Origin: Catajapyx aquilonaris
Taxonomy: Eukaryota
NCBI GenBank assembly: GCA_000934665.2
Contig: KZ538029.1
Span: forward strand, 62,001-126,000
Length of the DNA stretch: 64,000 bases
Direction: 5' to 3'
A program made the position numbers and the translations under genes. Shown here in pieces: positions 1,536 through 48,900 of the stretch (the first letter of the stretch is position 1; the number at the start of each line of letters is the position of its first letter). The notes under the pieces are model-generated. The model was not told the origin of the DNA. It worked only from the letters and a program-made list of their open reading frames with translations, and ran no database searches.

Positions 1536-2364
1536 ATATACTCAAAATATTGATTTGTAGTTTTTTTTAAACATATTACGATCTGCGGCCCATAATCGAA
1601 TTTTTTTCCCCCTAATTTTCTTTCATGCAACCTGCCCTAACACGAGGATTTAATAATCCTGGCATGTCCTCCGAGTCATGGGAATCAAAAAAGCAGCGTA
1701 ACTGACATACGTGACTGCGGAACATCTTGCGACGGATCAAATTTACACACATATATTGAGAGGGGTGCCTTTTTAAAAGGCGGCTCTTTGATGCTTTCCG
1801 TCCATTTGGGGGGCGACAAAGATCAGTTGGCAGTACGTCTGTCGTCGGCATGCCTTAAAGAAGAAGCCTGACCTCCCCCTTTCCCCCTCCATATCTACCC
1901 CACCCACCATCCCCTCGTTCAGGGTCACCAATTGAGGGCCTTTTCAAGTCGCCGCCCTTTTGAGCGGGGGTGGGCTTGGGGACTCATATACACATCCTTC
2001 AGTATGTGTGTGCTCCCTTTTTAGTGTGCGTTGTGTGCGTGAGCTGCAGCGTCTTTCCTGTAGGAGGTCAGAGGTCAGTGACGGGGTAAGGTTTTGGTTT
2101 TGCGCATGGGCTACTAGCTGACAAATGGCGCAGGCGGATGGGTCGCGCATGTCGGCAGGGGGTTTGACGGAGGATGTGTATCAAAAGGACAGGGGCTTCT
2201 GGTAGGGGTTGGTTCACAAAAGTGGGTTCCTCAGTGGTACTGTCGAAAACATTCGTAAGTACTCAACAAACATGGTACAAAATGCTGTATGTGACATTTT
2301 GCTTTTCTCATCCCGCCGTAGTGACCTTTGTGACCTCAAAATGTTGTCTGCATAATCTGTGGGG

Positions 2365-3691
2365 ATGGGTCCATCGAGACTCTTCCTCCTCTTCGTGGTT
2401 GTGCATGTTGCGGGGACTAGTAAGGACACCACGAAGCAGCAGGTAAGTGCCATGGATCTGTCGAGAGGTCACATCTAACAAAAGGCATTTTCAGAACCAG
2501 GAGATTGTCAATGTGGAGGACACGACGGTGTCAAACTTGGGGGTCATTTTGGATATCACGGCGCCTCTAGAGGATTTGGCGGTACCGTCAGCGACGATCC
2601 CGAAGAGTCGTCGGGAGGAGAACCGTCGTCGTAAAGCTCGTCGTCGTCACGAGCGGCAAGGTCGGAGACGACGGAAGAAGCAGCAGCATCGTCAGTCAGG
2701 CGATGCACATCGACGTCGTTCCTTGGAGAAGCAGGTACTGGTACGGGACAGGAGCCTGGCGCTGCTGGGGTCCAACCTGGACGACGTTGACGCTGCTCGG
2801 ATACTGTCAGGAGCGCCCGAAATCGTGAAGGAACTGATAGCCAACGAGGAGGAGACAACGACGTTCGTACCGGATGCCGAAGAGGGCAGCTCGTGGTTCA
2901 GTCTGGCTCGACTAGCCCCTGACGTACCGGAGGAATCTGCAGAAGGGGATGCCCACCAGCTGCAACGGATGGGGTCAGCCCTTGCCGCGCTCTTCGGAGG
3001 CACATTCCAGGTACCGGTACCGTCTGCGCGTATCATCCAATAAGTAGGGGGGAAGGGCCGGGCAGTGTTGTCAAATTATGGGTTTAGATTGTGCTGTATG
3101 TTGCAGGAACCAGAATGGGAGTCACCTGAGGGCAGCGGAGAGCCTCTGGGTGCCGAAGACACCAGAGACCCTTGTCTACGATGGATGCACTGTCCGTGGG
3201 AGGCCGCGCTGGGCCGCGCGGTGGGGCTGCTGCGACTCCCAGGTTGTCCCTGCGAGTGGCCTGTGGTTCAGACGAAGCAGCAGCAGCAACAACAGCAACA
3301 GCACCGACGACGAGTGTGGGACTCCCGCTGGCGCCGCTTCTTCGCCTGGGTGACCGAGACCAGACCGCACTGGGTCCACAACTACAGACCCGGGGCCGCC
3401 CTCTGCGTCCGGTCCGTGCCCATACCCGGTACCCTCGCATCCCAAATGTGCTGCTACGACACGGCCCGCAGCCTGCTGACCCGTGGCTCAGGGGCCGGCA
3501 CCCCGTTGATGATCAGCCCCGAGGCCGCCCCTGACCTGCACACCAGACTTGACCTCTTGCCCTGGAGACTCTGCAAAGGTGACTTTACCCGGTTCAACTC
3601 AGTCCGGCCTCCAAATAACTCTCTCCGGTGCAAGGCCAACCCGGGGCAAGAAGAGTTCCGGAAGCAGATAAGAAGAGCCAAGCAGTACTGA
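2365..3691 (+). CDS. ISM1: Secreted isthmin-like AMOP-domain protein; exons 2365-2442, 2495-3010, 3107-3691
   Basis: Signal peptide MGPSRLFLLFVVVHVAG; GT-AG phase-0 introns; C-terminal LPGCPC..CVRS..QMCCYD..LLTRGSGAGTP..DLLPWRLCKGD..RPPNN..AKQY matches the isthmin AMOP C-terminus; ISM1 vs ISM2 orthology not resolvable. Confidence 0.85.
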
Positions 3692-4201
3692 AGCAGGTGC
3701 ACCGTAGTAGACGTATGGTACAGTGTTTGACAGTGTGCTGGACATGGTGTCGTACTGGTGGCGCCACGAGCCGTGACCGGGAGAACCGCCAGTGGCAAAG
3801 CCACAATAACGTTCGTCGGCCTGCCATTGGCTGTTAATATTTTCGCCGCCATAGGATTCAGGCGCCACCTGTACGACTCTTGTCCAACAGTAGACGTCGT
3901 TTGTGCTGCTAAACTGCGCGATTACCTCAATGCATTTACAGGTGGTTTTACCACATTTTCCTTACTAAATTCTCATTAAAATGTGTCACTGTTAACTGGT
4001 TTTTTATTTGGCGTTTACAGCGAAAACGGCTGGCTTTGTCCAGCGGAGCTAGTGAAATTGCTTTTAAAAAGTGTAGTAGTAACATTACTGCGCAATTTAA
4101 CTTTAATTGTGGATGATGATGGGTGTTTTAAGGCGAATATTTCGAGGCGAAGAGGGCGCTTGGCTTGAATAGGGCTCCGTTTGAGCGCGATTACGCGGCA
4201 A

Positions 4202-4274
4202 GCTCCTGTGGCCTAATGGATAAGGCGTTGGCCTCCGGAGCCAAAGACTGTGGGTTCGAGTCCCACCAGGGGCG
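4202..4274 (+). tRNA. tRNA-Arg(CCG)
   Basis: Acceptor stem GCTCCTG/CAGGGGC, D-arm TGGCCTAATGGATAAGGC, anticodon arm TTGGC-CTCCGGA-GCCAA, T-loop GGTTCGAGTCC, followed by TTTT. Confidence 0.95.
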
Positions 4275-33900: not shown

Positions 33901-36900
33901 AGGAATTTGCCACATTCTTAAATTACTCTTTTAATTACAGAACATGCTACTGGTGCAGTTAAAGGAGCTTCGCTAACCGTGGTAAGTCTACCTACAGTTA
34001 TTTTATTACATCCGTAATTAAACTAGCAAAACCTATTGTTGCAATCATAATTTTAAGTAACTCCGGTGAGACAAGTTTCGTTGCAGTTTCCGATACCAAA
34101 CACGATTTTGTACTCACCCATGACTTGAACTTCAAGATTTCCACGCGACGCGTATCCTTGAGCGTTTCCAGCAACGCACGTGTACGTCCCTTGATCCGAG
34201 TTCCGTTGCACATTCTCAATGATCAGAGTACCGTTAGGAAACACCTTCTGTCGTCGGTTGATCGGCAGCACGCGTCCCTCTGTCAGACGTTAGAAAGTAT
34301 ATTTTACCGCCTGCAGAAACATGCTTATCGAATTGTCGCGTGTGTGTATATGAGAAAAATAGAGCTTACCTCTCTCCCAGTTGATCGTTTCAATCGGATA
34401 TCCGGCAACGGGGCATGTGACGGTCAGGGTGTCGCCTGCGACAACGGCCATTTTGTCCATAGCTCGAATGAAGGGCAGGCCATACACGTTCAGACGAGCG
34501 GCGTGTTGGGTGGATCCTACTTTCGAAGCAGCGGTGCATGTGTACAGACCTCCGTCGTTGGTATGCACTGATGAGATGTTCAGGTGGGACACAACCTCGC
34601 CATTGACTGTCACATACTGCCCAACCTGGAGTCTACGCGAAGAAGCAATACAAATGACGTACCGACAAAGTGATGTATATACTGTTGCATCAGAGCAATC
34701 AAAGCTGATGGCTTTTAGATAGGCTAGTCGCGATGCCTTCAATTTGAAGATTGGAGGACGACACTTGCCTGTCATTGTTGCCAAGCTTCTTCCCATCCAG
34801 TTCCCATGTAATCTCAGGAGTCGGGTTACCAGTGGCCGTACACTTCAGGAACAGGGATGGTCCAGGCTGCAGAGTCTTCTCCCGGAAAGTGTAGGTGAAC
34901 TGCGGTGGTTCGACTACCAAGGACCGAATAATTATAAACCACTGATAGGCAAAGTTACACGGTCACGAGTAAGCCTGATTACTCGTGACTCCTAACCCAC
35001 TGACACTTACATCGGCCTCCAAGTTTGAGTTCAGCAGTTGCCTGAGCGCTTTCTTGCTCGTTACGCACAAAGCATTGGTACATCCCTCGGTCTTCCTTTC
35101 GAACCGTGTCGATTCTCAAGGTGGGCTCGTTGTGAGCAAGGGGTTTCCCATCCTTGATCCAGCTCACAGACAGGATTGGATTACCCTGTGTCTTGCAGGT
35201 GAAGGTCGTGGTGCGTCCGAAGTCTACAGTTTGAGTCGGTGGCTCGATTGCAGCAGCAAGAGGAGCTGTTGATATGTTTTGGGATTGGCGGACATGACAC
35301 TTTAGGGCCAAAAAAAATTTTGCTCACCTGTGACTGTGAGGACTGTCTCGACGCTCTCACCGCCGACGGAGTTGTTGACGACGCAGAGGTACTTTCCGGA
35401 GTCTTCAACCTTGGCTTCCCGGATGATCAGGGTTCCAGACACCTGTCGGACTCGGTCGTTCAGCTCTACGGGCTTCTTACGGGTTGTTCCGTCGATGAAC
35501 TTGTACCATCTGTGGAAGATAAAAATCGGGGGGAGGGAGAGGGGAAGTCAGGGGCCCAGGATTGAAAGGAAGGGCAGCAGCAGCCAAGCTACACCATCCT
35601 TCCGGTACACAAAATCAATTACCGATACAAAGGCAAAGGGTATCCCTGAACCGGACAGAGACCAACCAATGCGTCTCCGACTAAACCGTTCTTCAGTTCT
35701 ATCGTTTTGCTTGTAACTCGAGGTCGCACTGCCCCATTTGGCTCTAATATGGATGGGGGGATGAATAAGTGAAAGGGGGGGGAGATATTATTCAACATAT
35801 CTTCCGGGGATTGCAACTTATTGAGTTTAAGGATGTTGCACTGTGCGGCAATTGACCTTTATGAAGTGTGTCGAGGGCTGGATCGTATTATGATGGGGAC
35901 GGAAATTTGCAATTGAAATGGCGCGGATACTTTGATTTGTTGACACCCTGTCGTGTGAGGATGGGTCGGGTGTATAATCAGCATGACTTTACAGCAGGGT
36001 TCAACAACACATGAACCCAAAAGTGTCGAAACATTTTCACCCAGAAAAGGCCAAGTTCGGGCAATGAACAACCTCAATGAATTACTTCAGTGGCCTATGA
36101 AGATTACAAGCCAGACCATCCGGTACTCTCGACCGCACCTGATCCACCATAATTCCACGTTATCCATTTTATGGCCATATAAAAGGTGCGGAAAGTTATA
36201 CGGGGGGGCTGCACTAAAGGTAAAATGCCCTACTGGAGAATTCAGTTTTGTCACCTGCTGCTGGGGACTGGGTGGGCTTGGGCAGCGCAGGTCAAGGTGG
36301 CGGCCACGTCTGACCTCAGAGTGACCTCGGACAGTCGACTGCCGGACACCTGAGGTGGTAGTCGACCGACTGGCTCTGTGAAACGAGGTATTTGCCAGAT
36401 GGACCTGGGTTCGAGCCCCTGCCGTTTTGTTTTTTACTAAATAATCCCTGCCGCGCCTGATCGGATTTTTTTTTTGCGAATTCGGGCCGGTTGTATGAAC
36501 GCAAATTTATATTAAAAATATCGGATTATGCCAAATTGTGCATAATATGATTTTTCCCCCCACAATTTGATTTCGTACAAGCGGCACTTGAGAAGGAAGG
36601 TTTGGGATGCAAGAAACTGGCGCTTTCAACAATGGGTACAAATATGTTATTTGACATTATTATTGCAAAAAAAATATTGTGTTCACCTTAATTTTAACGG
36701 GAATTGTGCCTAATGATTTTAAATTTAAAGAACCAGTTTTGTCCTACTGATTCGGGTGTTGGTAATATCCGACTGCCACTCACAATTGTGTAATTTTTTC
36801 CCATCAGAGGAGGCTCTAAGAAAGTTAGATAATCGTTGATTAATATTACCAATTTCCGGGTTGCCAATTGTTCATTAAACTGTAATTATTAATATTGAAT

Positions 36901-39900
36901 TATAATATCCACATTGAGTAGTAGTACTGATAAATAGCAGCAACAGACATTGTAAAATACTTTGAGTAGTTTTCGGCTAAATTAGATGATTCTCCATAAA
37001 AGCGGCCTGTTAAATTATTGTGTGGATTTGCAAAATTCCAAATATCTCTCAACTGACTTTGAAAAATTCGTTCACATTTTTGGTTTACAGAATTTTCCCC
37101 CACCATCAAAACATTTTGAGACACTGTAGAGGTGTTTCCCGAAAAACATCAATGTGCAAGCAAATAGGAGGCAAGAACATAACATTTTCTTGCCCGATGC
37201 AGCGTCAAAAACTTTGTACCCACCGTTTTATGGCGCGCAGTTTTTTTAAAAAAATTGAAGCATACACACCCATGCATAGACATATAAAACGAAATAGATT
37301 GGGATGCAAGAAAAAGCAGACAAGAGAGTAAAAATCTGAACAAGCAAGGTAGACTCTATGGGCTCTAAAGCAGCTATATCAAAGGGGAATATATTGATCC
37401 AACCAACACATTGACGAGATCCCAGGACTTACCCAGCTAGGTCAGACCAGCACAGACCCTAGTAGGTCAGGAGGGTGACCCCAGATGACCAGGCGACCCC
37501 AGAGGGGGGCTCTGGAAAGGCAAAGAAAAAGACCACGCTAAAGGTCACGTTTTCGCTTGCACCGGGCCAGGGTGCCCTCGCTATCAAAAAAAAAAATGAT
37601 ATTTATTTTTTTGAAAAATCTCCCACCGGCCACACAGAAAAAGTGCAACGTCCAAAATAATATTAAAGGAACCGATCCTATTATATCTACAAAAATTTGT
37701 TTTCTTCGGAATTTTGGCTCATCAGCTAGCCTCACATAAGCTGTGACAAGTCCTGGGTTGCTGTCATCTGTTGCATGCTATTTTATATATTTTCGCGGTT
37801 TTTTTTGACGGGGATCTAAGTAGTACCAAATTTGAAAATGTTAACACCGCCATTTATTTTTTTGCAAAAAAGAGTCTAGTGCTCTATGCTTTAAAAAGTC
37901 GGGTGAAAAATAGAGGTGAACCCCCGCACACCATGCTGAGTGGACAAGTGGTCAGCGCGAGGGCAGGAAGGCCATGAAGTACAGTCTAAAAAATGTGGTA
38001 ATTAAAAATAATACTACAACATCACAGGGCTCGCTGCTTGCCCCCTTTTGTTTACACACATGTGTACTTACCCGTTTCACACAACAATATTGAACAATGG
38101 AACTTGGGATTTTTCCATGACTCAATAATTCAAATAATCGCGATTCATTTACCTGTATTGCGGGACAGGAAAGCCTTGTGCTCCGCAACTGAGGTCAAAA
38201 GCCTGACCTTCCCTTATCTTTCGAAACAGCTTAGCTTCTCCCAGGTAGCGAGGTGACACGCGTCCTTCAGGTTCTGAGGACCAGGAAGTGGGAGGCTCAG
38301 GTTCTAATTCAACCCTCATTGTCACCTATAGCTTCCTTACACTTGAATATTCGTCGGCCATATACAACTAAGGCTTTCATTTCTGAATATGAGTTCAAAT
38401 GAAGCCATCAGGTAAGGTTCTCACCTTGTCATTGGTTTAGGAGAAGCCTGGACTTCACACAGAAGCGCGAATGGACTTCCAGACCTCACGATTTGCTTAT
38501 TAAGGCCGTCTCCTGATGCCTTGGGAGCCGTTTTGCCCACAGGTTCTAAAAACCAAATAGGTCCGGATTTGTTTTTTAAAAAAAGAAAAAAAAGAGTGCG
38601 TTGGTGCCAGGGTTTTAAGGTGGGAAGAACCTGCTGTTCCAACCTATGTCGCGGTAGACTTTTAGGGGTCCCGAGAGAGACCAAGAGGAGATGCGGGACT
38701 TGACTGTGCTCAAAGGCGGAGAAGGGGAAAAAAGAAATAGTCTCTTACCTGGTGCTTGGAAGTGGATGAGCCTGAACCTCGCATAAAAGAGCCATGGAGG
38801 ATCCCACCCTTCCCTTCTCACGTTGCCAACCGTCCCCGGACACTTTGGGCGCCGTTTTGCCAATTGGCTCTGAGAGGAAAAAAAACCGTTGCAAAGCCTC
38901 GCCTGATTCGTTATGTTTCGGGGAATCGTTTTTATCACGATCCAACTAATGGAATCTGTATAGGGTGCTTAATATTCGTGTCGACCTACATGCTGCCTGG
39001 AATGTCCTATCTCGCCCAATGTCCTCACCTTATTTGAGGGGTAGGAAAACCTTGCGCGGGACACAGAATCGTAATAGGTTGACCAGCTGGCTGGGAGTTG
39101 CCCTCAAATCGCTCCTTGGTAACACGAGGTCGCAAGTTGCCTGTAGGCTCTGATGGAATGGATGATGTCCAAGGAAAGGAGAAAAGAAAACAAAAAAAGT
39201 AGTAATCCCCTGCCCTCACCTGAATATGGGTACAGGAAATCCCGTGACCTCACAGGTCATGGCGGTGGTGGACCCTTGGAATACCCTTTGAAGCAAACTG
39301 CCCGATATCTCCCTCCCAGCCTTCTTCGGAGGCACGCTGCTTGACGGCTCTGTGGTGCCCAAATTATACGCAGAAAAAAAACCAATTAAGGGCCAGTTGC
39401 ATCAACACAAATTTAAAGAACAAAGGTGGAATTTTTGTCCCACAGCTAGTTATGCTGCTAACTTAGCAGTACCCATGTTAGGATGGTTACTGCTATACGT
39501 TAGCAGTAACTAGCAATGGGACGAAAATTCCACCCCAAATCTGTAAAATGTGTATCGTTATATGCAGTGTGTTCCAATTGAAATTGAGCGATTTTTGTGA
39601 AAGCTAATATTTGCGATAATATCTCAAGTAGATGCTGAAAATAAGCAGCTTAGTTCAACAATAGGAACACACTGTAATATTAGCAATATTTAATCAACTT
39701 TTAAGTTGGGTCGATGCAACCTTCCCTACAGCCTGGTTACCAAAATTTTAAGAAGATGTCGGATTTTTATATTGTTATTGCCTAATCATAATATTGGAGA
39801 TATTTCATTGCGTTTGTGAAACTGGGCCTAGGTCGCGCTCGAGATACGGTAACCCCTGCCGGTTTGATCTAATTTTCGGAGACTCACCTGTTGATTCAGC

Positions 39901-42900
39901 TCTAGGGTATAATGACCACGAGGCTTACCTGAAGATTGGGACTGGAAAACCCGTGACGTCGCAAGGCATGGCTGCGGATTGACCCAGGGTCACTATACGG
40001 AGCAGACTGCCCTGGATCTGCTGACCCGCTTTGCGTGGAACCACACTACTCGTCGGTTCTAATGGGGATCAGGAAATAAGTGGGGGAAATAGGGCTCGTT
40101 TCGTTGCACTGCACCAGTTTTATGACACCAAATTAGGGTCAAATCTCGGATTATATATATTAATCTGCGGTTTGCGATTCGACCCGCCTTAATCTCTCAG
40201 GGAGACAAATCTCACCTGAAGAGCGGAAGAGGATAAGCCTGAGCCTGACAGGATAGTGTGGTGGAATCCCCTACAGAAGTCTCCACCAATATTCCCGCCA
40301 CCATTTTAACACCAATCAGCCTGGGAGGAACCTTCCCATGCGGTTCTGCAAGTGATAAATGTCAACCCAACGATGCGAGGAAGTTGCCCCAAGTTATCAC
40401 AAGGAGGTGTGGGTATGTGAGCAGGCCTACTTACTTGAAATGAACATTGGCAACCCAGCCCAGTGTTACATTTCAAGTAAGTGGCCTTCAGATTATATGG
40501 AGAATTTTTTTCCCTGCTCTCTAATTAATTACGGCCTGGATGTGGGTGTGGTACAACCCCGCCCCATCTGACTCCTTACTTGTAAATGGCCACGGGGAAG
40601 GCCTGTATGTCGCATAGGAGTGCCAACCGCGCACCATATTCGGTTCCCTGGGTCAGCAAACGCACCTTGCTGTCTTTCAAACTGGGAGACACGCTCGTCT
40701 GTGGCTCTGTAACAATACATCACGCGTTTTGTTACGCTTAAGAAGCTGCCTAGATTCAGTGACCCAAGAGCCGCCCTTATGTGATATGGGTACCCCCGTC
40801 GTTTGTGTGATGTCCAGTCATTTCCAGGAGTAAGGTAGCAGACCTGAAGCTCAAATAGCCTCCAAGAGAGGCGCTCCTCCACAAAATGGCCGCCTGCTAG
40901 GCCTAGGACTAGGCCTAGCAGGCAACCATTTTGTGGAGGAAGAAAGGAGCGCCTCTCTTGGCGGCTAGTGTGGCCTTCAAGTCTGCTACCTTACTCCTGG
41001 AAGTGACTGTACCGGCCTACCTAACGATCGGTGCTGGCCATGCTTGAGCGAGACATTGCAGCGCACCTGGTCGGCCCGTCTGAACCAGCTCCTTACGAAA
41101 TCCAAACTTGTCGTCCTGAAGTCGCGGAGCTACTCTCGCCTGAGGCTCTGTAAATTATTATGCACCAGGTTAATCACTCCCGAGACCCCACGGTAACCTC
41201 TGATTTACTATTAGCCGTTTTACCAGCAGGAAACATCTGGTAGGGGGTCTATTGATTTCTATGACAAAATTGTACTGGAAGCGTCGTACCGGTATACAGG
41301 GACAGGGAACCCTTGCACGGGGCACACCATGATAAGTTTCTGATTTTTGGACGCCTTCAGTTTGATCCCGGTGGATTGGTCATCTTTGACCCTAGGAGCC
41401 ATGCTGGTCTGGGGTTCTGGAATTGGGAGGAAAAACCAAGGATGAGGGATGTCGTGTTACCTGAACGACGGAGTAGGGAACCCCTGCAATGAGCAGAGCA
41501 TGGTCGCGCGTAGTCCGGCCCGTACCGTCCTTCTGACTACCACCACCTCTTCCTGGCCCAGAGCTCGAGGAGCCACGCTGCCCTGCGGTTCTGTACCAGC
41601 CCCCGAAAAAAAAGAGGAAGACCTATTACCTGTACAGGGGAGTGGGGAATGCCTGGACCACGCATGTCATGGACACAGATTGACCCTTCCCTGCAGTCTG
41701 TCTGGCCACCGCCACTCCCTTGTCCTGCAACTGGGGCTTTACACTGGCCTGCGGCTCTGAAAATCATCACAAGTCCTTCTATTGCCTAGTGTGCGAGGAA
41801 CTACCTGAATATGGGGAAAGGGTATCCCTGCACCACGCAGAGGAGGGCCGCAGTGCCACCCCGGTACGTCCCTTTCCTGGTAGCCACCACGTCCTTGTCC
41901 TGTACTTTGGGTGCCACGCTTGTCTGCGGTTCTGCATAGAGGACCGTGGTTGAACCGTAGTTAAGGCCTGTTTGCGCCCTCACTATTTGAGATCAGTCGC
42001 ACGACCGACAAAAATGGGTTCCCCTAGGTCCCCCAGACTTAGGGGAACCCATTTTTGTCGGTCGCAAAGCGTCTGGTCGTATACGACTGAGGCTCAAATC
42101 GTGAGCACGTAAACAGGTCTTTGCATATGATTGGGTCAGGAAAGGGTTCGAGCCTGCTGTCGTCCGAGGAGCCAATGGAGCTTACCTTACACTCAATTGG
42201 TCCAGGATGTTTCTTATTTTTTTTAACACCCTGGGTCGCCCTGGGTACTCAACATAATTATGCTACTCTTGCAAGGTGCCAGTACTCACCGGAATATAAG
42301 AAGAGGGAATCCCTGGGCCTCGCAAGTGAGTGCCATCATTTTTCCAGCTGTTGCAGCGATTTTAAACTGGCTAGATTTGCTGTCGTGAACCCGGGGTGCC
42401 ACGCTAGTCTGCGGTTCTGTAGGTCGTACAGTGCGTTACTACGTTATCTAACAGTGCAGGGGCCCCCTACAGATGCTCTCCGAGGAATGACGATAGTGTG
42501 TGGAACTGTACTCACCGGAATATGAGAAGCGGGTATCCCTGGGCCTCGCAAGTGAGTGCTAGTACTTTCCCATCGGTTGCTACCATCTTAAACCCGCTAG
42601 ACTTGCTGTCGTGGACTCGGGGTGCCACGCTAGTCTGCGGCTCTGTAGGCCGGTTTAATTACTCGTTACAATATTTCAATAAGGGTGGGGTCAGAAAAGG
42701 GGACACCTAGCTGCTCTTCTCCGAGGAATCTCGACCGATTTTTAGACACTCACCGGAATATAAGAAGTGGGAATCCCTGGGCTTCACATGTGAGGGCCAG
42801 GACTTTACCAGAAGTTGCCATCATTTTGAACCCGCTAGCTTTGTTGTCGTGAACCCGAGGCGCCACACTCGTCTGGGGCTCTGAATTTTTTGGTGGCAAT

Positions 42901-45900
42901 ATTTGTAATAAATGCAAAAATCTCACCTGAATATCGGGACGGGCTGACCCTGCGCTTCGCACAGGAATGTAACGCCCGAATTTAACGACTTTGTCAAAAA
43001 GTCAAACTTTCCGCGTGGGGGAACACGAGGTGGAACGCTTCCTACGGGATCTGCAAGAAGGGGTGGTCGGACCTGTGGCACAATCCCTAATATGCTACCC
43101 AAAAAAAGTCACCTGTAGATCGGGACTGGAAATCCCTGTCCGTCGCAGAGGATACTGAAGGCACTTCGTTCTGTTTGGACGATGTGAGGTCGGGTGAGCA
43201 TCGGGAATTTGGGAGCCACGCTGCCCGCGGGTTCTAGAGAGGGGGGGGNGGGGGGTATTAAGTAGGTAATGTCGCGCGTGCTATACACCCTATTCGGCAC
43301 TTGGTATTCCCTGCCGTGTGCTCCGAACTTTAAGCAGTTGTCCTGACCTGAATGAAGGTACCGGATAAGCTTGACCTTCGCAGAGCAGGGCGAAACCTAG
43401 TCCTTGCTCCACGTCAAACGCGTCCGATTTGGCTGATCTTGGCAGCTTCGGTGACACCTTCCCGACGGGTTCTGCCAGATTTACATGACTCGATATAAGA
43501 TGGTGCAACACCCCCCTACCTGAATGACGGGACAGGGTACGCCTGGGCCTCGCAAAGTAGACCCATACCGATTCCAGACAAGACTTGGAAGGAGTTAGAC
43601 TTGGCCAGCTTAGGCAAGGTTGGAGGAACTCGGCTGATAGGTTCTGGGGTGCGGCACAGGACAAAGGGAATTAGTCTGATGGATATTAACGATTATCTAT
43701 ATAAAACATCTATGATATTAAAATCGTAGTGGGTCTGTATGGTTATAAATGCCTTCTGATTGATCTGCCGCATATTGTTACCGCAACGCTTCTGATTTGC
43801 CCACGTTCAGCGCATGCGCAATGGGGTGGAGACAGCGCCTCTGGTGGGTGGAAGGGGGAACTGCTCATTCGACCTTCCATTTACACCTCCCACCCATCAC
43901 TGAATTGTTGCCTAGTTGGCACGGGTTGTTGACAGTCAGTTCTTGCAACCTCAGGAATTGTTCGAAGGCCAAAGCGATTAACAATATGTGGCCTCCACCA
44001 CCGTACGCCGCAGACCTAGAAAAATGCGAGCTAACAGAGGGTTTTTCTAGTTTGGTATGAAACTGACAGGTGGTCTTCATTAAAAAACCAAATGCAACGT
44101 GTACTACATGGGTGCACCTTTTAATATTTGACGACGATCAGCATTGTTTACGCACTGTCCTACTACCCTCCGGACTTAAAATATCTCATTCAGATATTGC
44201 TGTTATGCAGCCCGCCTATTCCTGTATACATAGAGGGGGAGTCCCCTATTTTGAGAAGTGCATGGACGGGCTTGGCCATATCGAACTGCATCACATATTG
44301 ACAAGTCACGCACAAACGATGGCGTTTCCTGACCTGAATGCGGGAGTGGGGAAACCCTGTGCCTCACACAGCAGGCTAAATCCTGAGCCCCTTCCAACGT
44401 CGTATGCGTTGATCTTGGCCGACTTTGGAGTACGAGGAGCCACTCTCGACTGCGGTTCTGCCAGCGATTCATAAAAAAAGAATTTAAGAAGAAAAGGCCC
44501 GTCTCATCCCATCCCAAATGTCTGGGTGCGTCGAGCACTCGAGCTATATAGGAAATCCCTGCCGTCTTTATCGCCTAATATGCTATTGGTTCAAATCAGT
44601 ATCCGAAGTATGCAATACCTGATTGAGGGTATAGGATGACCCTGAGCTGGGCATAGCAGAGAAAAGGCTTCTCCTCGTTTACGACGAAACGCAAGTGACG
44701 TGGTATCAGAAGAAAACTTGGGGGCTGCAGCACCCATGGGCTCTGTTGGCAAAATTTTAGGACGCTTCTATTATACTGACTCCTAATAATTATTGGAAAG
44801 CGGGAAAGGGCACCCCCAAAATAAATCCGAGGAATTAATATCGTTATACCTGATGGAAGGTACCGGATGACCCTGTGCCGGACACAGGAGGACAATAGGT
44901 TCGTGGCTCTTCTTCTCGAATGTCAGTGAACGTGCGTCGGTGGATAGCTTGGGAGCTGCGCTACCACTAGGCTCTGCAAACCCGGAACGCTAACAGATTA
45001 TGATTGGCCAGGAAAATCCGGATATTAAATAATATACCCAAGTATATAGATAAGCGCAATTCATGAAGTTTTCTCTAAGGGTAAACCAATGAGCCACCTT
45101 TTCCTCTGGTGATGTGGACAAGTGAACCACTTTGTAATAGAAAAAAAACCAGTCTATATACAGTAAGTACGCGGATAGAGACACGTTGCACTAACTTTGC
45201 AAACAAATCCGATGCAGAATGATTGGCATGCACATAAGAGCATACAGAATTAGGTCATACCCGTCAACCGTAATTGACTTATGGATTGCACTGCAGGGTG
45301 ACTCTAAAGTCTGGACACATGTAATTGTAGGTGTATTGTTGGTCTCCAGTTGTGCCAGTTGACAGTCTGAGTTGGCACAGTTGGAAACCAACAATACAAT
45401 CCAATTACCAATGTGTGCATCATTTAGTCACCCTGTAGTACCGCCTGCACAGTAGACAGTTCTGTGATACAAGAGAGTCACTTAGGTTATCTAACTGCCA
45501 GGATAAGCACGAGTAAGAACATGCTCTTATTGCTCTAATACTGAGGTAAATTACACCTGCATGGGGCATGTATTAATGCCCCGCTTTTAATTAAGCTCCT
45601 TAGGACACGCTAATGGCTGCCATTTATTACCGTGTCCTGATAAAACACGAAAATAATTACCGTTATTTGGCCTGTAACACTGCGGGTACAGCATGGCCAC
45701 AATGGCGGCACGTCTGTGCCTCCCCGGGGTAGGAACAAGGTATAATGGCGCAAGGTCTGAATGCTTATGCTTCATTGATCTTTGTTCAAAGTTTCTATTA
45801 GATCCACTAATCAGAGAGGCAGAGTGGCCCATTGTTGCTGTAATGTCATGAATTGCGTAGGTTATGTGCCCTGTGGAGATTGACCCCCCTAATTGCGCAA

Positions 45901-48900
45901 TTGTGTAATAAGGTGTGCAATGATCCCCCCCAAAGACTTTTTACCTGAAAGATGGGACCGGGTAACCCTGCGCGGGACAAGTAAGTGTGAACCCATTGTT
46001 GGAAGGCACTTTCGAGGAGTGGATTCTGTCTTCCGAGGGTAACTTTGGTGATGCGCTGCCCATTGGTTCTATCGAGGGTTTTGGTAATTTTTGGAGGACA
46101 ATTTTGAGCATTACCTGAATGCTGGGACTGGGAACCCCTGCGCGGGACACATGAGGGAAAAACCGCTGCCTGATCGGCGACGGAAGACGTTTCCCAGAGA
46201 GTCCGATTGAAATTTTGGAGACGAGCTGCCTATGGGTTCTATGGGAGTTTGGGTTGGATATGGATGGGGAAAGGACAACTCATCAACAACTATAGATAAA
46301 TTATTTTACGAGCGCAACCTAGTGCGCACCCACACTCGCGCAGTTCTGACAACAACGTTGCCACAGCTACTTCTCAGGAACCTCTAAAAGGTTCGTTCCA
46401 GTTGGCAACGTCGCAAAAGTCGGCCATATTGTTACCCCCTGCTCGAACTGTGTTGCGCAGTCGGTTGCGCTCATGAAAATATACCCATAGAAAATTGCAG
46501 GCAGTAAGTTTTCGACCTCAGTTCGGTTACAATATAATTCCATTTTTCTGTATGATTGTGACATAATAAAGCACAAAGTTTGTCTGTATGTCCGGGCTAC
46601 CTAACCCACTTTCGGACTACTGAGAGTACTGATTGCGGGAAAAGTCCGAAAACCGCACTTTCTTGAGCTCTAATACGACCCAAAAGGATTTGATCTAGTT
46701 GCACATAAATGACATCGACGTAATTATCCGCGCAATTTATCTCCCAAAAATTTCGAGACGTTATAGAGAGGCTACCTGAAAGACGGCACAGGGTATCCTT
46801 GTGCAGGACAGAGTATTGTGACGCCTACTCCTGCTTGGTATTGAAACGCGTTGGTTCCTCTATTCGAGCTAGGAAGCTTAGGCGCGGCGCTACCCATGGG
46901 TTCTGTGCAAAAGTTTTGAGGGTTCACCGGCGACCAGATTTAAGTGTGGGTACAGGGTGGCACAACACACCTGAAGGCAGGGACAGGAAACCCCTGCGCT
47001 GGACAGACCAGAGCGAATCCGGACTTGATCTCTTTGACGAAAAGGTTGGCTCGAGACTCCACGGGAATGCGAGGTGCCGCGCTGCCCATGGGCTCTTGAG
47101 GTGGGATGGAGGAGGAAGGGTCAAAGGTCAAAATTTCGAAAAAATTCCGGTATGTTGTGGCTAATAACGAGTCCACTTACCTGTATACTGCTGTCCTGGT
47201 CATTAATCGACTTGGATAGGAAGAGAAGGAAAGGGTCTAAACTTTCAGAATCCCAACCTCCCTGCCCTGGGCCAACTCCCTCTCCTCTTTAAAAAAAATT
47301 GCAAAAATATTTGCACGGTTTTCGACCATTTTATCCCCCCCTCTAAAAATTTTGTGAAATTGGTGCCAATGGTCTTCCTCGGAGCGGAACGGCAGGGGTA
47401 CCCTATCCCGACATCCAGGCAACTTCCAGTTTTGGAGACGATGGTCCGAGGTTTGAAGTCGGGTCGTCGTCTCCAATACTCGACACACACTTAAGTCTAA
47501 AAAGAATTTCCCCCATGCTAATTTCTTACAACGTGAGCGAACTTGGGTCATGCCAATTTAATGAAAACGCTCATTTAATTTTTTTAAATTTACAAACTTC
47601 GGAATAATGTGACCAAATTTGCTTCAGGTGTTTGCGATTCATGTTCAAGTAAGACTTGGCAGTACATTTTGACTTGCAATAGAGTAGCTTGTGTTTCATA
47701 CACTGCTCATTTTGGAATCAACAGGAGGAAAATTTTGGAGCAATATGTTTCATTTTCGTAGATATTTTTACATTAAGTGCATGCAATTTTAGGAGTACAT
47801 TTAGTCACATTATTCGTGTAGTGATTTAAAAATTTACGCACTGGCCAATGCAAATCCCCAGTTACATCTTTAGTGCTGGTTGGCCAATTTTGTTTTTGGC
47901 AAAACAATGGTGATAAACTCACCGGTGATGACTAGTCGTCCAGCAGTTGCACTTAGACGAGTTTCTCCAGTTAAACGATGCTTGGTCTGGCAGCGGTATG
48001 ACTTGTATCCGTCCTCTGGTCCAACATCACGGATGTGCAATTCTCCGGAAGGTAGCACAAGATATTTTCCATCTGTGTTGCACGAAGATGGGAGGGGTGG
48101 AAAGAATTGAACAGTACATTAGATAAAAGTTGTGAATATTATTTTTTTGTTCTAAAATATTTCTGAATCGCAAGATGGGACAGTGATAATTTCACTTTTT
48201 AAGAGTCGCATGTGTACTTGAATTCAAGTTGAATGTTTGAAGCATCACAGTCCAGATCCATAGATTCTATCAATGATTGCATGCTAATAGGTCATTCTTG
48301 ATAAGGACTTTTGCACGTGACTCTTTGTGTGCAGAGCAGAATTAGTTTAGAACAAAACCCCTCTTGGCACTGTTTACACCAAGGCTATTCAAGTCCTTAT
48401 CAAAAATCAGGAAACCAAAACGTACAGACACGCAAGAGATGCTTCTACAAACTACTCTGTAACAAACCAAAAAAAAATGCAAAGTTAATATCCCAGCAGG
48501 ATGAGGGAGAAAACAATGCCAGCTAATATGGAAAACGCATGCAATGTCGCGTCTGTACGTCCACACCGACACAATAATAATACTCGCAACGGCCGAAGGA
48601 AGAAATAACGCAGGGTTTGGGTATGACTTGCCAATGATTTTTTTTCGGACACTTTAAATAGTTTAAAACGAACCCTTCAAATACAGGAAAATCTTCCCTC
48701 AGCCTTAGCCTCCAGGAAGATGTGTGCTTTTGGGCTGTGAAAAATCTCGAATCTTCAGTACAATCGGTTAATCCCATAAGATGACTTCTTAGTAACCTGA
48801 TCGCCTAATCTTCATGGAAGCTTTTTTTTCCACAGTGTTTGAAAAGCGTGGTTAGAAAGGGAGATGTGCCAAAATTTAAGACGGTTCACATCTTCCTTTC

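Follow-up and report, generated by a model that had tools for sequence, protein, structure and literature searches.

The docking site and selector system of Dscam1 exon 6 is said to go back to Graveley in 2005. The locus that we describe here shares with the anchor system of Anastassiou et al. 2006 (PMC1431710) the position of the anchor between exon 5 and exon 6.1, the core sequence, and the complementary elements upstream of the variants. For fly selectors that paper gives an average distance of 60-70 nt, and it notes that a small number of binding sites reach into the exon upstream. In the accessible part of the paper, selectors are treated as intronic, and the anchor as the antisense of an exon-end consensus is not stated.

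The exon side of such pairings is most prominent in Coleoptera. Dong et al. 2021 predicted that most beetle exon 6 selectors of Dscam1 include exon sequence, and tied this to introns shorter than 50 nt; selectors that include exon sequence number 26 of 28 in Tribolium, compared with 7 boundary selectors of 48 in fly (PMC8042237). The same source reports the docking sites of exons 4 and 9 to be clade-specific. A prediction made earlier from the letters of this locus (hereafter, the original prediction) had allowed docking-exon pairing some precedent in Drosophila. The precedent exists, but it was understated, as the beetle selectors mostly include exon sequence. In its accessible text, the beetle account comes without a fixed register, a silent-site test, or a donor-masking or origin argument, all of which we consider below.

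Two further systems are close. Balancer elements (Ubs/Dbs), which are separate from the docking site, resemble what we propose in that an intronic element near the docking site pairs with exon 6 coding sequence and promotes inclusion of the following exon; in silkworm, compensatory changes gave rescue (PMC8791459, PMC12962786). In the model of Ivanov and Pervouchine 2018, the tandem duplication of one stem arm produces many selectors for one docker (PMC6071210); both arms are intronic and pre-existing in that model, whereas in the present case the arm that was duplicated would be the 3′ end of the exon itself. The docking element is known, and the exon-boundary selector layout is known as well, so far mostly as a prediction (PMC8042237, PMC1431710, in the parts accessible). 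A literature search found in print neither the fixed-register antisense identity, the silent-site tuning, and the inversion origin that we discuss, nor the idea that protein-coding sequence pins an ultraconserved docking element; the primary fly papers, Graveley 2005 included, may already remark on the exon-end match.

The window, that is, the whole stretch of 64,000 nucleotides from Catajapyx aquilonaris (contig KZ538029.1), carries on its minus strand an arthropod Dscam1 gene with 11 exon 4 variants, exon 5, 29 exon 6 variants, exon 7, and the exon 9 array. The docking site sits inside an 829-nt intron that separates exon 5 from exon 6.1; it lies ~500 nt downstream of the former and ~300 nt upstream of the latter. 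The features of this region are

47923..48072, minus strand: constitutive exon 5
47425..47483, minus strand: predicted stem-loop directly upstream of the docking site (fold z -3.5, 0/200 shuffles; limits picked after the fold had been seen)
47392..47421, minus strand: docking-site core of Dscam1 exon 6, the reverse complement of the last 27 nt of exon 6 plus donor positions +1 to +3 (pairing, nhmmer, and PSSM; 28/30 positions common to three other arthropod lineages; fly anchor match by eye)
47380..47391, minus strand: lineage-specific 3′ extension of the docking site, which aligns with the intronic selectors after 6.9, 6.12, and 6.13 and not with exon ends (not conserved in the other lineages)
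47362..47379, minus strand: rest of the interval of the original prediction, with exon 6 similarity not above chance
35623..47094, minus strand: cluster of 29 exon 6 variants (121-130 nt each), followed by introns of 39-1777 nt
start at 35509, minus strand: exon 7

We identify the core with the known docking site because the 42-nt fly anchor printed in PMC1431710 matches it by eye. By eye too, the fly anchor keeps the YPIPTFR part of the match, lacks the Gln-Gly part, and extends on the intron side, in line with 41/48 fly selectors being intronic (PMC8042237). The LCR stems of other species occupy the position directly upstream of the docking site (PMC3535345), the place where the stem-loop listed here is predicted by folding only. 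A search of the species' own genome for a second copy of the docking region matched the window alone.

Positions 47392-47421, the core of the known Dscam1 exon 6 docking site, are the antisense of the exon 6 3′ end together with its 5′ splice site. That the docking site reads as an inverted exon end was the central claim of the original prediction, and it stands: the plus strand from 47372 gives a 16-residue translation followed by gc, and all 29 exon 6 ends face the docking core in one ungapped register, with 14-24 Watson-Crick pairs of 30. The pairing first noticed, that of 47421-47392 with the end and donor of exon 6.3 (46112-46141), indeed has 27 of 30 positions paired (23 Watson-Crick and 4 G-U, ungapped), and the ends of 6.1, 6.8, 6.15, and 6.17 reach 27 pairs of 30 as well. 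When an nhmmer model of the 29 exon 6 ends is searched against the 64-kb window, the reverse-strand check suggested with the prediction, it recovers all 29 exons and a single other match below E 1 (E 7.4e-4), located at plus-strand positions 47393-47419. These bases are also picked up by a whole-exon HMM, at E 0.009.

Scored with a PSSM of the exon 6 ends, the docking core obtains 24.3 bits (p 3.7e-9 per position), which equals the fifth weakest real exon, while the next best non-exon site in the window reaches 9.6 bits. About 2 scores like that of the docking core are expected genome-wide, and thus the weight of the match comes from its location. The match holds with a model trained only on the 20 exons followed by long introns (p 1.5e-9), with third codon positions dropped (p 1.9e-8), and with the near-palindromic Gln-Gly-Tyr-Pro codons dropped, where the non-palindromic 17 nt alone give p 2e-5. 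All 4 clear transition differences between the docking core and the modal exon base are G-U compatible.

The similarity is well delimited. The interval originally proposed, 47362..47421, has to be shortened: the 30 nt at 47392-47421 match, but 47362-47391 (VFLGAER) shows 3-12 Watson-Crick pairs of 30 with the exon 6 ends (mean 8.1), which is the chance level. Exon similarity is absent from a sliding scan of the pyrimidine/A-rich stretch 47290-47360, and antisense copies of exon 4 ends or starts, exon 9 ends or starts, and exon 6 starts are not found in the window below E 0.28. The statement that most variants end similarly is right about the register, which is the same in all 29, but it passes over a steep gradient in duplex strength, from -25 to -54 kcal/mol. 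Likewise, the 6.3 pairing outdoes every intronic selector in alignment score (61 vs. 54 for the best one) but not in longest unbroken helix (13 vs. 15 for the 6.19 intron).

Because the protein fixes most matched positions, the silent sites are the ones chosen for testing. We compare a short-intron group, the 9 exons with a following intron of at most 70 nt (39-70 nt), with the other 20 exons, a 70-nt split that was chosen after the duplex strengths had been seen. Duplex strength varies widely, and the strongest ends precede short introns without a selector. Third bases make Watson-Crick matches at 47/71 positions in the 9 short-intron exons vs. 68/154 in the other 20 (label-permutation p 0.0016). 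Under two codon backgrounds, the short group has 152 Watson-Crick pairs vs. ~130 expected (z ~6), and the long group 291 vs. 278-280 expected (z 1.9-2.4). Measured as duplex energy against synonymous recodings, the Stouffer z is -6.5/-7.2 for the short group and -0.3/-1.4 for the long group, whose energies are close to those of the recodings. The statistics of this genome establish that selection keeps the silent sites of short-intron exon ends complementary to the docking site; the synonymous constraint that the original prediction proposed to look for is present, mostly in exons with a short intron after them. Where an intronic selector exists, what match the exon end retains follows mostly from the protein, through the Ig3 motif QG[YF]PxPxxR.

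Could the match be a relic or a by-product, with the motif and the docking site each conserved separately and the codon bias due to splicing enhancers or GC? The matched positions mostly fall at the first or second base of a codon, and the long-intron exons match almost as their amino acids predict, both of which such an account would lead one to expect. Short-intron exons are also richer in GC3 (p 0.02 for the body, 0.008 for the end). Moreover, the 3′ boundaries of fly exon 6 have reduced codon bias, or non-optimal codon use, which PMC2741454 ascribes to splicing enhancers; exon-end codon bias is a theme common to that work and ours, and docking complementarity is not part of the explanation in its accessible text. 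The same source finds that in Drosophila dS at exon 6 3′ ends is not lower than elsewhere. However, the excess at silent sites holds specifically for the actual docking bases. When 12,288 synonymous decoys are scored on the short group, the real site comes among the top 2 (on the long group, within the top 4%), and among 1,120 decoys of the same GC it is in the top 0.1% (p 0.0009). With position and GC3 added as covariates the effect persists (t -4.75). It likewise holds when the cut-off is set at 50-100 nt, and at 115 nt it weakens (p 0.08). Furthermore, the excess is tied to the following and not to the preceding intron, which has no effect on tuning (p 0.66), and tuning falls as the score of the intronic selector rises (rho 0.58, p 0.001); once the intron score is corrected for length, its relation to the exon-end score is not significant (p 0.25). 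On the exon tree the short-intron label is scattered, with 7 changes for 9 rows vs. a shuffled mean of 7.9, on a tree that is poorly resolved (1/26 branches well supported). We consider the by-product account unlikely. Since the silent-site excess of the short-intron exons is specific to the real docking bases, these exon ends are probably selectors for the next exon, and the excess supplies evidence from evolution for exon-boundary selectors, for which the beetle paper had predictions only. It also names the exact exons and codons that can be mutated without changing the protein. The candidates are

46968..46997, minus strand: 6.1 end and donor, candidate selector for 6.2; 21 Watson-Crick and 6 G-U pairs; synonymous z -2.3/-2.8; 68-nt intron after it
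46112..46141, minus strand: 6.3 end and donor, candidate selector for 6.4; 23 Watson-Crick and 4 G-U; z -2.7/-3.1; 46-nt intron
43517..43546, minus strand: 6.8 end and donor, candidate selector for 6.9; 24 and 3; z -3.9/-4.0; 48-nt intron
43110..43139, minus strand: 6.10 end and donor, candidate selector for 6.11; 19 and 5; z -1.0/-1.2; duplex -51 kcal/mol; 62-nt intron
42924..42953, minus strand: 6.11 end and donor, candidate selector for 6.12; 21 and 5; z -3.2/-3.5; 18-bp unbroken helix; 46-nt intron
41802..41831, minus strand: 6.15 end and donor, candidate selector for 6.16; 24 and 3; z -1.5/-2.1; 48-nt intron
41458..41487, minus strand: 6.17 end and donor, candidate selector for 6.18; 23 and 4; z -3.1/-3.3; 44-nt intron
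44783..44818, minus strand: intronic selector candidate for 6.6; alignment z 5.7 vs. shuffles; the preceding 6.5 end is untuned
40764..40803, minus strand: intronic selector candidate for 6.20; z 4.7; the preceding 6.19 end is the weakest match of all, with 14 Watson-Crick pairs
39839..39861, minus strand: intronic selector candidate for 6.23; z 3.3

The exon-boundary layout of the type described by Dong et al. 2021 recurs here: in 7/9 exons with introns of at most 70 nt, the predicted pairing spans the exon-intron boundary, across the donor, at -49 to -58 kcal/mol. The short-intron exon ends start 66-97 nt before the next exon, and among the intronic selectors with z of at least 2, 5/9 start 76-101 nt before it. 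By our own cut-offs (end score of at least 55 or intron z of at least 2), a clear partner is found for 15/28 downstream exons, and the rest have moderate ones. The ends of 6.10 and 6.23 are only mildly tuned. Exon 6.16 is followed by the shortest intron of all (39 nt, 41630-41591), yet its end is weak and an intronic selector is lacking; exon 6.17 may rely on the end of 6.15, which is very strong, or may see little use. On the other hand, exon 6.18 (41290-41416) has a tuned end (z -2.2 to -2.4) despite a 142-nt intron after it; its duplex extends into the intron, and an alignment scan of those 142 nt did not find a good intronic selector.

Several intronic selectors follow the GC of the docking site and not the GT of the exon, which would avoid cryptic donors. 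We observe one such candidate at 40566-40534, 14 nt after the 6.20 donor; of all non-exon sites on the sense strand it resembles an exon end most (9.6 bits), and it too follows the docking GC and not a GT donor.

Origin left aside, we think it probable that the docking core, an antisense exon end, acts as the partner of short-intron exon ends that select exon n+1. Where the following intron, at 39-70 nt, leaves no room for a selector, exon n would pair with the docking site through its own end. As judged from the predicted duplexes and their geometry, this pairing would loop out exon n and cover its donor, and the loop would bring exon 5 beside the acceptor of exon n+1. Selection would then keep the silent sites of such exon ends complementary, and leave the exon end largely free where an intronic selector exists. 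We infer in this way the pairing in vivo, the selection of n+1, and the masking of n. The idea of the original prediction that the pairing presents exon n+1 fits the geometry and also the published fly data, in which deletion of exon 6.1 lowers 6.2 through partial loss of its selector (PMC8791459).

Alternatively, the pairing may be real and mainly silence exon n by donor masking, without serving as a selector for n+1. The predicted duplexes cover the donor GT in 9/9 short-intron exons, in keeping with the donor masking of the original prediction, and masking of a 3′ splice site by pairing has been reported for balancer structures (PMC8791459). However, tuning follows the missing selector for the next exon, the distance to the next exon is selector-like, and a mainly silencing role sits poorly with the fall of fly 6.2 on deletion of 6.1. 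We regard it as quite improbable, more so than the by-product account.

If the short-intron exon ends do act as selectors, part of the partners of the docking core are protein-coding and the core is unable to drift, which would explain its extreme conservation; this genome thus adds a testable reason for the conservation of the docking site. There is also a caution for experiments, as deleting or recoding one exon 6 variant can alter the use of its neighbour.

To see the docking site in other lineages, we performed one metagenome scan with a search pattern that fixed 18 positions and left the Gln-Gly part outside. It returned 19 loci, 9 of which we dropped as chance matches because they have no Dscam exon match and unrelated flanks. 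In the other 10 the docking site lies in an arthropod-like context; 7 of these 10 hold Dscam exons, and L003, L013, and L016 hold none and share the docking flanks of L012. The ten loci amount to three lineages: the L012 group of seven near-identical loci, L005, and L010/L017. A scan of a prokaryote genome collection for further loci gave 0 matches.

In 10/10 loci the reverse complement of the docking site reads QGYPIPTFR and then GCA. Over the four lineages (this genome plus three, with L005, L010, L017, and L012 compared), 28/30 positions are identical within the exon-matching 30 nt, 18 of them being pattern-fixed, and conservation drops on both sides. With a pooled model, antisense similarity to the exon is significant in 6/6 intron sequences (E 2e-5 to 3e-3).

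Replication of the short-intron tuning in these lineages is partial. The replication set leaves out L010 and L020 (near-copies of L017 and L012) and the last exon per locus, which has no exon after it; it also lacks the first exon of L010/L017, which the pattern did not catch. With 4 vs. 11 exons, short-intron ends pair more strongly in raw energy (p 0.010), and the silent-site contrast between short and long is not significant (p 0.18). The long-intron exons also show a silent-site excess (z 2.5), and the correlation with the intronic duplex has p 0.06. Covariation between lineages at the third base of the second Pro codon is not significant (Fisher p 0.14). In L012 (8681-13815) and in L020, exon 6 ends before introns of 1.7-2.8 kb still pair strongly, at -48 to -50 kcal/mol, and strong exon ends in this lineage are not limited to short introns.

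As to how the antisense relationship arose, the Dscam paralogues give its direction. Among 7 Dscam paralogue regions (9.9 kb each), 4 have one exon-6-like exon with the same end motif and intron phase, one is without that intron, and two show no clear exon; an antisense exon-end copy is found in 0/7 (best 7.3 vs. 29.7 bits). With the motif in 4/7 paralogues and the antisense copy in none, we conclude that the motif predates the docking site and that information ran from exon to docking site. The docking event has been put before the insect-crustacean split (PMC12962786). One paralogue, L034 (G000:C552), is without the intron at the exon 6/7 boundary that Dscam1 and four other paralogues have.

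Two origins, both compatible with the main explanation, then stand level, each of them a little short of an even chance. The first, the inverted duplication of the original prediction, takes the docking core to be an inverted copy of an exon 6 3′ end and its donor that arose in a single event at about the time of the first exon duplication, so that exon ends would be the ancestral selectors and intronic ones later, and each tandem copy would bring a default selector for its downstream neighbour. In favour of such a copy, four lineages share a single ungapped register that covers nine codons and crosses the donor. Also in its favour, the match is carried by the first two positions of the codons (p 1.9e-8) and by the untuned long-intron exons, and the exon-end motif is older than the docking site.

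The second is stepwise growth that began with a short complement arisen by chance, such as the near-palindromic Gln-Gly-Tyr-Pro codons or the arm of an older stem as in the model of Ivanov and Pervouchine, extended by selection towards the most conserved stretch common to all variants. In agreement with it, the similarity stops where exon conservation stops, the lineage-specific docking extensions track intronic selectors, and the docking differences from the exon consensus are pairing-compatible. In addition, midges are reported to have their own docking site in place of the ancestral one, wholly replaced, hence such sites can be rebuilt (PMC7430681). But this route requires a functional short intermediate, and the non-palindromic 17 nt match by themselves (p 2e-5).

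A one-step copy, for its part, might be expected to leave homology beyond the paired block, and it is not found: a gapped upstream extension has corrected p 0.22 at this locus and 0.002-1.5 in five other loci, with differing registers, so that 1/6 loci (L017, corrected p 0.002, register shifted) extends past the paired segment. Selection for pairing, moreover, predicts the same end state. The data are thus compatible with inverted duplication, but because homology stops at the paired 30 nt, it is not separable from stepwise selection.

Two more specific sources were considered and set aside. If a whole inverted exon had been the source, its middle might correspond to another antisense patch at 47240-47269, but that patch is not significant (corrected p 0.46, fifth best on the plus strand), which also counts against the one-step copy. 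A dead exon in direct orientation as the source of the docking site has no sense-strand match in the intron (best score -5.1), a result that weighs against stepwise growth. In the 3′ flank of the docking site of L005, L010, and L017, the antisense match may run a few bases on to the Cys codon with a 2-nt shift, significant in L017 only.

Complementarity to coding exon ends would give a simple route for mutual exclusion to arise and to scale with duplication. Taken to its full length, a more tentative proposal that we would not quite bet on, the pancrustacean docking site would be the fossil inverted copy of an ancestral exon 3′ end and donor, which would have given each tandem exon copy a built-in selector for its neighbour, allowed the array to expand with mutual exclusion, and pinned a non-coding element to Ig3 coding sequence for ~450 million years. 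GC in place of GT would let intronic selectors copy the docking site without becoming strong cryptic donors, and the docking site would still wobble-pair with the real donors.

Three minor observations concern the rest of the window. In exon 6.27, two candidate acceptors (AG-Glu-Pro, in frame) lie 30 nt from each other, at 38303 and 38273; with the nearer one the exon has a normal length of 121 nt. The region ~2300-3960, unrelated to Dscam, is GC-rich (2001-4000 has 56% GC), and its minus strand carries long open frames. A tRNA-like passage, also unrelated to Dscam, lies near 4200-4260.
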